From Escherichia coli (GTDB lineage: Bacteria > Pseudomonadota > Gammaproteobacteria > Enterobacterales > Enterobacteriaceae): 64,000 nt of DNA. Of the stretch, positions 19,243 to 28,061 are shown piece by piece. The notes beneath the pieces are model-generated. The model did not search any database. It had not been told where the DNA came from and saw only the letters and a program-made list of their open reading frames with translations. Numbering within the stretch: the stretch's first letter is position 1; each line of letters starts with the position of its first letter. Where the stretch lies: the NCBI RefSeq assembly GCF_003334255.1, contig NZ_QOWU01000021.1, one strand, 5' to 3'. Position numbers and translations under genes: made by a program.

Positions 19243-19400
19243 GTAGGCCTGATAAGACGCGCCAGCGTCGCATCAGGCATCGGAGCACAACTGCCGGATT
19301 CGGCGTGAACGCCTTATCCGATCTACGGGCCTCGTCCCTGTTGTGATAAAGGCATCAAATCCCAGACATGATAAGACGCGCCAGCGTCGCATCAGGCGAT
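19243..19400. repeat. cluster of three REP (repetitive extragenic palindromic) elements between yqfA and ygfZ
   Basis: gtaggcctgataagacgcgccagcgtcgcatcaggca (19243-19279), gccggattcggcgtgaacgccttatccgatctac (19293-19326), gacatgataagacgcgccagcgtcgcatcaggcg (19366-19397). Confidence 0.85.
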
Positions 19401-23611: not shown

Positions 23612-25345
23612 GTGAAACAACAGATACAACTTCGTCGCCGTGAAGTCGATGAAACGGCAGACTTGCCCGCTGAATTGCCTCCCTTGCTGCGCCGTTTATA
23701 CGCCAGCCGGGGAGTACGCAGTGCGCAAGAACTGGAACGCAGTGTTAAAGGTATGCTGCCCTGGCAGCAACTGAGCGGCGTCGAAAAGGCCGTTGAGATC
23801 CTTTACAACGCTTTTCGCGAAGGAACGCGGATTATTGTGGTCGGTGATTTCGACGCCGACGGCGCGACCAGCACGGCTCTAAGCGTGCTGGCGATGCGCT
23901 CGCTTGGTTGCAGCAATATCGACTACCTGGTACCAAACCGTTTCGAAGACGGTTACGGCTTAAGCCCGGAAGTGGTCGATCAGGCCCATGCCCGTGGCGC
24001 GCAGTTAATTGTCACGGTGGATAACGGTATTTCCTCCCATGCGGGGGTTGAGCACGCTCGCTCGTTGGGCATCCCGGTTATTGTTACCGATCACCATTTG
24101 CCAGGCGACACATTACCCGCAGCGGAAGCGATCATTAACCCTAACTTGCGCGACTGTAATTTCCCGTCGAAATCACTGGCAGGCGTGGGTGTGGCGTTTT
24201 ATCTGATGCTGGCGCTGCGCACCTTTTTGCGCGATCAGGGCTGGTTTGATGAGCGTAACATCGCAATTCCTAACCTGGCAGAACTGCTGGATCTGGTCGC
24301 GCTGGGGACAGTGGCGGACGTCGTGCCGCTGGACGCTAATAATCGCATTCTGACCTGGCAGGGGATGAGTCGCATCCGAGCCGGAAAGTGCCGTCCGGGG
24401 ATTAAAGCGCTGCTTGAAGTGGCAAACCGTGATGCACAAAAACTCGCCGCCAGCGATTTAGGTTTTGCGCTGGGGCCACGTCTCAATGCTGCCGGACGAC
24501 TGGACGATATGTCCGTCGGTGTGGCGCTGTTGTTGTGCGACAACATCGGCGAAGCGCGCGTGCTGGCAAATGAACTCGATGCGCTAAACCAGACGCGAAA
24601 AGAGATCGAACAAGGAATGCAAATTGAAGCCCTGACCCTGTGCGAGAAACTGGAGCGCAGCCGTGACACGCTACCCGGCGGGCTGGCAATGTATCACCCC
24701 GAATGGCATCAGGGCGTTGTCGGTATTCTGGCTTCGCGCATCAAAGAGCGTTTTCACCGTCCGGTTATCGCGTTTGCGCCAGCAGGTGACGGTACGCTGA
24801 AAGGTTCCGGTCGCTCCATTCAGGGGCTGCATATGCGTGATGCGCTGGAGCGATTAGACACACTCTACCCTGGCATGATGCTGAAGTTTGGCGGTCATGC
24901 GATGGCGGCGGGTTTGTCGCTGGAAGAGGATAAATTCAAACTCTTTCAACAACGGTTTGGCGAACTGGTTACTGAGTGGCTGGACCCTTCGCTATTGCAA
25001 GGCGAAGTGGTATCAGACGGTCCGTTAAGCCCGGCCGAAATGACCATGGAAGTGGCGCAGCTGCTGCGCGATGCTGGCCCGTGGGGGCAGATGTTCCCGG
25101 AGCCGCTGTTTGACGGTCATTTCCGTCTGCTGCAACAGCGGCTGGTGGGCGAACGTCATTTGAAGGTGATGGTCGAACCGGTCGGCGGCGGTCCACTGCT
25201 GGATGGTATTGCTTTTAATGTCGATACCGCCCTCTGGCCGGATAACGGCGTGCGCGAAGTGCAACTGGCTTATAAGCTCGATATCAACGAGTTTCGCGGC
25301 AACCGCAGCCTGCAAATTATCATCGACAATATCTGGCCAATTTAG
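23612..25345 (+). CDS. recJ: single-stranded-DNA-specific 5'-3' exonuclease RecJ
   Basis: 577-aa ORF from GTG; DHH phosphoesterase motifs (VVGDFDADGATS, DHH). Confidence 0.95.
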   Translation: MKQQIQLRRREVDETADLPAELPPLLRRLYASRGVRSAQELERSVKGMLPWQQLSGVEKAVEILYNAFREGTRIIVVGDFDADGATSTALSVLAMRSLGCSNIDYLVPNRFEDGYGLSPEVVDQAHARGAQLIVTVDNGISSHAGVEHARSLGIPVIVTDHHLPGDTLPAAEAIINPNLRDCNFPSKSLAGVGVAFYLMLALRTFLRDQGWFDERNIAIPNLAELLDLVALGTVADVVPLDANNRILTWQGMSRIRAGKCRPGIKALLEVANRDAQKLAASDLGFALGPRLNAAGRLDDMSVGVALLLCDNIGEARVLANELDALNQTRKEIEQGMQIEALTLCEKLERSRDTLPGGLAMYHPEWHQGVVGILASRIKERFHRPVIAFAPAGDGTLKGSGRSIQGLHMRDALERLDTLYPGMMLKFGGHAMAAGLSLEEDKFKLFQQRFGELVTEWLDPSLLQGEVVSDGPLSPAEMTMEVAQLLRDAGPWGQMFPEPLFDGHFRLLQQRLVGERHLKVMVEPVGGGPLLDGIAFNVDTALWPDNGVREVQLAYKLDINEFRGNRSLQIIIDNIWPI

Positions 25346-25435
25346 CGTCATCTTCTCTATAAAAAAGAGCGTGGATTGGGTACAATCCCGCTCTTATCAC
25401 CGCATTTTGACTAGCTCAATAAAAGAAATCAGACC

Positions 25436-26534
25436 ATGTTTGAAATTAATCCGGTAAATAATCGCATTCAGGACCTCACGGAACGCTCCGACGTTCTTAG
25501 GGGGTATCTTTGACTACGACGCCAAGAAAGAGCGTCTGGAAGAAGTAAACGCCGAGCTGGAACAGCCGGATGTCTGGAACGAACCCGAACGCGCACAGGC
25601 GCTGGGTAAAGAGCGTTCCTCCCTCGAAGCCGTTGTCGACACCCTCGACCAAATGAAACAGGGGCTGGAAGATGTTTCTGGTCTGCTGGAACTGGCTGTA
25701 GAAGCTGACGACGAAGAAACCTTTAACGAAGCCGTTGCTGAACTCGACGCCCTGGAAGAAAAACTGGCGCAGCTTGAGTTCCGCCGTATGTTCTCTGGCG
25801 AATATGACAGCGCCGACTGCTACCTCGATATTCAGGCGGGGTCTGGCGGTACGGAAGCACAGGACTGGGCGAGCATGCTTGAGCGTATGTATCTGCGCTG
25901 GGCAGAATCGCGTGGTTTCAAAACTGAAATCATCGAAGAGTCGGAAGGTGAAGTGGCGGGTATTAAATCCGTGACGATCAAAATCTCCGGCGATTACGCT
26001 TACGGCTGGCTGCGTACAGAAACCGGCGTTCACCGCCTGGTGCGTAAAAGCCCGTTTGACTCCGGCGGTCGTCGCCACACGTCGTTCAGCTCCGCGTTTG
26101 TTTATCCGGAAGTTGATGATGATATTGATATCGAAATCAACCCGGCGGATCTGCGCATTGACGTTTATCGCGCGTCCGGCGCGGGCGGTCAGCACGTTAA
26201 CCGTACCGAATCTGCGGTGCGTATTACCCACATCCCGACCGGGATCGTGACCCAGTGCCAGAACGACCGTTCCCAGCACAAGAACAAAGATCAGGCCATG
26301 AAGCAGATGAAAGCGAAGCTTTATGAACTGGAGATGCAGAAGAAAAATGCCGAGAAACAGGCGATGGAAGATAACAAATCCGACATCGGCTGGGGCAGCC
26401 AGATTCGTTCTTATGTCCTTGATGACTCCCGCATTAAAGATCTGCGCACCGGGGTAGAAACCCGCAACACGCAGGCCGTGCTGGACGGCAGCCTGGATCA
26501 ATTTATCGAAGCAAGTTTGAAAGCAGGGTTATGA
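25436..26534 (+). CDS. prfB: peptide chain release factor 2; expressed by programmed +1 ribosomal frameshift at CUU UGA C
   Basis: Frame 1: ATG 25436 [25 protein letters not shown] then in-frame TGA at 25511-25513 preceded by SD-like AGGGGG; +1 frame continues [32 protein letters not shown]... to 26534 (SPF/GGQ motif [11 protein letters not shown]). Confidence 0.95.
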
Positions 26535-26543
26535 GGAACCAAC

Positions 26544-28061
26544 ATGTCTGAACAACACGCACAGGGCGCTGACGCGGTAGTCGATCTTAACAATGAACTG
26601 AAAACGCGTCGTGAGAAGCTGGCGAACCTGCGCGAGCAGGGGATTGCCTTCCCGAACGATTTCCGTCGCGATCATACCTCTGACCAATTGCACGCAGAAT
26701 TCGACGGCAAAGAGAACGAAGAACTGGAAGCGCTGAACATCGAAGTCGCCGTTGCTGGCCGCATGATGACCCGTCGTATTATGGGTAAAGCGTCTTTCGT
26801 TACCCTGCAGGACGTTGGCGGTCGCATTCAGCTGTACGTTGCCCGTGACGATCTCCCGGAAGGCGTTTATAACGAGCAGTTCAAAAAATGGGACCTCGGC
26901 GACATCCTCGGCGCGAAAGGTAAGCTGTTCAAAACCAAAACCGGCGAACTGTCTATCCACTGCACCGAGTTGCGTCTGCTGACCAAAGCACTGCGTCCGC
27001 TGCCGGATAAATTCCACGGCTTGCAGGATCAGGAAGCGCGCTATCGTCAGCGTTATCTCGATCTCATCTCCAACGATGAATCCCGCAACACCTTTAAAGT
27101 GCGCTCGCAGATCCTCTCTGGTATTCGCCAGTTCATGGTGAACCGCGGCTTTATGGAAGTTGAAACGCCGATGATGCAGGTGATCCCTGGCGGTGCCGCT
27201 GCGCGTCCGTTTATCACCCACCATAACGCGCTGGATCTCGACATGTACCTGCGTATCGCGCCGGAACTGTACCTCAAGCGTCTGGTGGTTGGTGGCTTCG
27301 AGCGTGTATTCGAAATCAACCGTAACTTCCGTAACGAAGGTATTTCCGTACGTCATAACCCAGAGTTCACCATGATGGAACTCTACATGGCTTACGCAGA
27401 TTACAAAGATCTGATCGAGCTGACCGAATCGCTGTTCCGTACTCTGGCACAGGATATTCTCGGTAAGACGGAAGTGACCTACGGCGACGTGACGCTGGAC
27501 TTCGGTAAACCGTTCGAAAAACTGACCATGCGTGAAGCGATCAAGAAATATCGCCCGGAAACCGACATGGCGGATCTGGACAACTTCGACTCTGCGAAAG
27601 CAATTGCTGAATCTATCGGCATCCACGTTGAGAAGAGCTGGGGTCTGGGCCGTATCGTTACCGAGATCTTCGAAGAAGTGGCAGAAGCACATCTGATTCA
27701 GCCGACCTTCATTACTGAATATCCGGCAGAAGTTTCTCCGCTGGCGCGTCGTAACGACGTTAACCCGGAAATCACAGACCGCTTTGAGTTCTTCATTGGT
27801 GGTCGTGAAATCGGTAACGGCTTTAGCGAGCTGAATGACGCGGAAGATCAGGCGCAACGCTTCCTGGATCAGGTTGCCGCGAAAGACGCAGGTGACGACG
27901 AAGCGATGTTCTACGATGAAGATTACGTCACCGCACTGGAACATGGCTTACCGCCGACAGCAGGTCTGGGAATTGGTATCGACCGTATGGTAATGCTGTT
28001 CACCAACAGCCATACCATCCGCGACGTTATTCTGTTCCCGGCGATGCGTCCGGTAAAATAA
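26544..28061 (+). CDS. lysS: lysine--tRNA ligase (constitutive)
   Basis: 505-aa [43 protein letters not shown]...; class II aaRS motifs. Confidence 0.97.

Follow-up and report, generated by a model that had tools for sequence, protein, structure and literature searches.

The two-frame prfB gene of an Escherichia coli chromosome as a probable programmed +1 frameshift site of release factor 2

How a gene whose reading frame is closed by a stop at its twenty-sixth codon, and which continues in another frame, can give rise to one complete protein is the question raised by prfB in the 64-kb stretch of DNA analysed here (hereafter the window), which corresponds to the E. coli chromosome at recJ-prfB-lysS. 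An earlier note on the same DNA had read this arrangement as a recoding site of release factor 2 (RF2), and our analyses support that reading: with a probability of about 0.98, the site is the programmed +1 ribosomal frameshift of E. coli prfB, through which RF2 would set its own level. We favour this interpretation because an exact cassette with all its defining features correctly placed, a gene divided over two frames, a joined product recognisable as RF2, and conservation both within E. coli and across phyla are found together, and no sequence evidence opposing it was found. Both +1 shifting in prfB and its autoregulation by the level of RF2 have been established experimentally in E. coli, as summarised by Prince, Lin and Feaga (mBio 2025, PMC12421855).

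The cassette AGGGGGTATCTTTGAC occupies positions 25499-25514 of the + strand, on which all its elements lie. A pattern search recovered it only once in the window even when two mismatches were allowed, and with the same two mismatches permitted the 16-base sequence had no match in 100 dinucleotide-preserving shuffles. Its 5' part, AGGGGG (25499-25504), constitutes an internal, purine-rich Shine-Dalgarno (SD)-like element located three bases 5' of the shift codon and six bases 5' of the stop. The three bases that separate it from the shift codon are the Tyr24 codon TAT (25505-25507), a spacing identical to that of the canonical motif (PMC12421855). The shift codon itself, CTT (Leu25, 25508-25510), lies directly 5' of the stop and forms with the first base of the latter the slippery run CTTT (25508-25511), whose last base, T25511, is skipped in the RefSeq join. 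The premature in-frame TGA (25511-25513) is codon 26, being preceded by the ATG at 25436 and 25 sense codons, and is the first stop in frame 0, the next one occurring at 25607. It is followed by a C (25514), which provides the weak UGA-C context and at the same time completes GAC (Asp26), the first codon of the +1 frame. When tested one by one, the features that define prfB recoding sites at the sequence level (AGGGGG, CTT, TGA and C25514) were all found in place. The elements AGGGGG TAT CTT TGA C, the slippery CUU and the position of the UGA at codon 26 had been described in the earlier note and proved correct to the base, both by direct reading and by pattern search; the interval given there, 25505-25514, covers TAT CTT TGA C and leaves AGGGGG just outside.

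The gene is composed of a frame-0 segment of codons 1-25, ending at the Leu25 CUU (25436-25510, + strand), and a +1-frame segment of codons 26-365 and the stop (25512-26534, + strand). The first was delimited by translation, is the first piece of the RefSeq two-piece coding sequence and encodes residues that match positions 1-25 of solved RF2 chains; the second, supported by translation, by the NCBIfam profile TIGR00020 and by a PDB match, contains the SPF (205-207) and GGQ (250-252) motifs as well as Ala246. Joining the two segments with T25511 skipped produces a protein of 365 amino acids, the 1099-base span minus one base amounting to 366 codons with the stop included. This product scored 525.9 bits against TIGR00020 (prfB, peptide chain release factor 2; curated cut-off 370), in a match that begins at residue 12 and spans the junction, while the models for RF1 gave about 305 bits, below their own cut-offs (at least 400). 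Comparison with E. coli RF2 chains in the PDB gave E = 8e-241, and residues 1-365 aligned to residues 1-365 of the solved chain 1gqe_A with one substitution and without gaps over Leu25-Asp26; these are depositor sequences, possibly of constructs lacking the frameshift, and so they speak for the identity of the mature protein rather than for shifting of this mRNA. The predicted product of the host gene is thus class-I release factor 2.

Alternatively, the ribosome might not shift at all, and the locus might instead code for two products, a 25-residue leader (25436-25513) and a shorter RF2 translated in the +1 frame through termination-reinitiation or from an internal start. Two observations agree with this possibility: the accepted model likewise has the 25-residue peptide as the product of termination, and the mechanical list of open reading frames (ORFs) contains, besides the ORF of 25 codons, one of 293 amino acids in a different frame beginning at the ATG at 25653, which are the two ORF pieces that the earlier note had seen. 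However, the +1 frame is closed by a TAA at 25455 and then open over 25458-26534, and between that stop and 25653 it includes no ATG, GTG or TTG, the ATG at 25653 being the first possible start, so that residues 26-72 have no start of their own and an internal start would delete residues 1-72 altogether. In the joined translation these residues agree with solved full-length RF2 and run through the junction without a break, which the TIGR00020 match crosses as well, and the N-terminal peptide encoded in frame 0 is also RF2-like in other phyla (...LRGYL, ...FRGSL). We therefore regard two separate products as highly improbable.

Conservation of the site was assessed at two scales. Within the species, a 1.4-kb query around it matched all 5,426 complete E. 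coli genomes screened, many of them at 100% identity, under recJ, prfB and lysS. A 60-base segment with the site at its centre was likewise present once per genome in 5,426 of 5,426, and was identical in 4,411. Three non-identical matches were listed, and the two single-mismatch variants examined among them carry a synonymous change (TAC to TAT) at 25517, which leaves the cassette untouched. A single genome of the 5,426 has its sole prfB copy on a sequence designated a plasmid and not the chromosome, probably reflecting a quirk of replicon labelling or assembly.

Across species, contigs from one genome per species (298 Gb) were scanned for AGGGGGTNNCTTTGAC, translating frame 0 upstream of each hit and the +1 frame downstream. 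The scan yielded at least 120 loci and, as 14 of the 16 bases of the cassette served for the selection, it tells where the cassette occurs and not how conserved it is relative to the flanking codons. In 102 of the 120 sampled loci, the protein encoded downstream in the +1 frame aligned strongly with residues 26-365 of E. coli RF2, preceded by a short RF2-like N-terminus in frame 0 ending in ...LRGYL, ...FRGSL or ...LRGFL. Where such split genes had an obvious start, the N-terminus comprised approximately 20-27 codons and the stop fell at about codon 21-28. Four further loci are interrupted by the end of the contig and have the same RF2-like N-terminus, and the remaining 14 are unrelated to RF2, being most simply explained as chance matches of a pattern of 14 bases in 298 Gb. 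Hosts of the split RF2 genes included Gammaproteobacteria, Betaproteobacteria, Rickettsiales, Bacillota, Bacteroidota, Chlorobiota and Omnitrophota. As regards the degree of conservation, a published survey of more than 12,000 genomes found AGGGGG, the three-base gap, CTTT, TGA (this last in more than 99% of cases) and the next C to be almost universally conserved (PMC12421855).

The distribution of the site bears directly on a second explanation of the frame break, namely a true frameshift mutation or an error of sequencing or assembly that would make prfB a pseudogene in this strain. The bare split of the gene over two frames is all that speaks for it. Against it, the same arrangement is shared by every one of the 5,426 complete E. 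coli genomes and by 102 of the 120 sampled loci from distant phyla, and the break does not lie just anywhere but coincides with a precise signal of 16 bases. Furthermore, RF2 is essential in E. coli and is the only release factor that reads UGA. A pseudogene or a sequencing error was consequently rejected on the grounds of universal conservation, and its probability is negligible. The concern for annotation is a different matter: a naive ORF caller divides prfB into a 25-codon ORF and a truncated ORF of 293 amino acids, with the risk that an essential gene is called a pseudogene. The warning of the earlier note in this respect is sound in principle, although current NCBI annotation already handles the site, joining the two pieces and labelling the frameshift.

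Restoration of the frame in the RNA, through transcriptional slippage or editing on a T run and not on the ribosome, is equally negligible. Nothing except the short run in CTTT suggests it; this run has only three T bases, and known bacterial transcriptional slippage needs much longer homopolymers. An SD-like element kept at a constant distance and a stop specific to RF2 would be purposeless in such a process, and they nonetheless co-occur with the site across phyla, both among the sampled loci and in the published survey.

Under the programmed ribosomal frameshift, a ribosome that has initiated at the ATG at 25436 would arrive at the UGA of codon 26 with its P-site tRNA-Leu paired to CUU. As UGA is recognised by RF2 alone, this codon would act as the sensor of the feedback loop. 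The C that follows it would make RF2-dependent termination slow (PMC12421855). With RF2 plentiful, termination would take place at the UGA and the 25-residue peptide would be released. With RF2 scarce, the ribosome would pause and AGGGGG would pair with the anti-SD end of the 16S rRNA, at a spacing too short for the normal geometry of initiation, which would promote re-pairing of the tRNA-Leu (PMC12421855). The P-site tRNA-Leu would then move from CUU to UUU, so that no codon would begin at T25511, GAC (Asp26) would enter the A site and translation would proceed in the +1 frame to yield full-length RF2 of 365 amino acids, closing the negative feedback loop.

The predicted pairing with the 3' end of the 16S rRNA was examined along prfB. 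The strongest anti-SD 10-mer within the gene begins at 25500 (-11.7 kcal/mol), in keeping with this mechanism, and a second one at 25943 is almost equal (-11.4 kcal/mol), so pairing strength alone cannot single out the frameshift site, which is distinguished by its position relative to CTT-TGA. We also considered a known RNA family or an unusual mRNA structure at the site, and rejected both: Rfam returned no match in 25340-25700 at a permissive threshold and none inside prfB when the whole window was scanned at the gathering threshold, and the predicted folding of 25470-25590 (z = -0.80) was not better than that of shuffled sequences, indicating no unusual local RNA structure. The absence of a special fold at the site fits a mechanism that does not need mRNA structure. 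A scan of 25100-26700 for promoters and terminators was uninformative, detecting one promoter-like match within coding sequence and, in the recJ-prfB spacer, one minus-strand hairpin resembling a terminator, in both cases with counts no higher than the shuffle expectation.

An alignment with annotated prfB had been proposed in the earlier note as a check. In strain M217, a 1401-base stretch identical to that of the window contains prfB between recJ and lysS, annotated in RefSeq as a two-piece coding sequence with the label "programmed frameshift". The window and M217 are colinear, with at least 99.9% identity, from position 1 to position 62742.

Downstream of prfB, lysS (lysine--tRNA ligase; 26544-28061, + strand) begins nine bases past the prfB stop, according to both the ORF list and the RefSeq annotation of the identical region, and its SD sequence, GAGGAA, overlaps the TGA of prfB (region 26532-26546). 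The lysS gene forms the genomic context of the site and does not belong to the recoding signal. The tight spacing suggests that prfB and lysS are co-transcribed, and ribosome traffic through prfB, being dependent on the frameshift, might affect the translation of lysS. Long ORFs were also detected on the minus strand, one of 334 amino acids opposite prfB (25497-26501) and one of 471 amino acids opposite lysS (26529-27944). The former ends at a TTA (25497-25499), exactly at the frameshift site. The triplets TTA, CTA and TCA, reverse complements of the stop codons, account for one of 341 sense codons in the +1-frame coding part of prfB; upstream of the site, where this register is non-coding, three of them fall within 70 bases. 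These antisense ORFs are most simply interpreted as shadow ORFs arising from codon bias, which incidentally mark the switch of frame.

Several other features of the window were recorded. The match to M217 (99.9%) stops at the last base of a tRNA-Gly(CCC) gene (62669-62742, + strand); beyond it, in 62743-64000, the window carries sequence that other genomes have annotated as ygeQ and an IS4-like transposase of the IS421 family, where M217 has a site-specific integrase. This boundary at a tRNA gene is the junction of a variable island. Three Rfam families were matched on the minus strand: 6S RNA (ssrS; RF00013, 139.8 bits) at 5552-5735, located upstream of fau/ygfA, the place it has in E. coli annotations; a SIB RNA antitoxin (RF00113, 133.8 bits) at 4753-4903, overlapping the position at which the type I toxin gene ibsC is annotated in M217; and naRNA4, a nucleoid-associated non-coding RNA (RF02564, 75 bits), at 19246-19323 between trhA and ygfZ. 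A large purine- and selenium-related cluster extends over 30787-61412, including ygfT/ygfS, guaD, xanQ, xdhD, ygfM, ssnA, ygfK, mocA, yqeB/yqeC, ygeW/X/Y, hyuA, arcC and xdhABC; it matches annotated E. coli and shows nothing unusual.

Comparison with known systems places the gene among well-characterized examples. The prfB gene of E. coli K-12 MG1655 (b2891) shares the recJ-prfB-lysS context and is identical over its first 90 bases, including AGGGGGTATCTTTGAC, with a single difference in 1099 bases at gene nucleotide 737 (window position 26172), which is A in K-12 and G here. Codon 246 is consequently GCG (Ala246), in contrast to Thr246 of K-12, and the recoding signal is unchanged. Ala246 has been reported as the allele of E. 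coli B and of nearly all other bacteria, Thr246 being specific to K-12, and the "B-type" RF2 carrying Ala246 as the more active form (PMC5373646). The occurrence of Ala246 instead of the K-12-specific Thr246 indicates that the window does not derive from a K-12 strain at the prfB locus. An independent role for the 25-residue peptide released by termination, or a frameshift equilibrium under Ala246 measurably different from that of K-12, appears very unlikely; neither idea is suggested by any result of this sequence analysis, and published work comparing the RF2 proteins of K-12 and B has largely anticipated the second.

With respect to the bacterial prfB motif defined by Prince, Lin and Feaga (PMC12421855), each element is matched here, i.e. 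AGGGGG, the three-base gap, CTTT, TGA and C, and the loci sampled across species agree with it. The variants described in the same work, in which the slippery run is TTTTTGA or the stop is TAA, are absent from this site. The prfB frameshift site of this chromosome is therefore a real, ordinary, textbook example, already known and annotated in public genomes, with nothing novel about it. It is also a good positive control for scans that look for recoding signals in raw sequence. In E. coli dnaX, a -1 frameshift occurs on a heptanucleotide and involves a downstream stem-loop and an internal SD-like stimulator. The prfB site resembles dnaX in being a case of ribosomal recoding with an internal SD-like element, but differs from it in the +1 direction of the shift, in lacking any predicted special RNA fold or Rfam match, and in having a slow stop codon as the driver.
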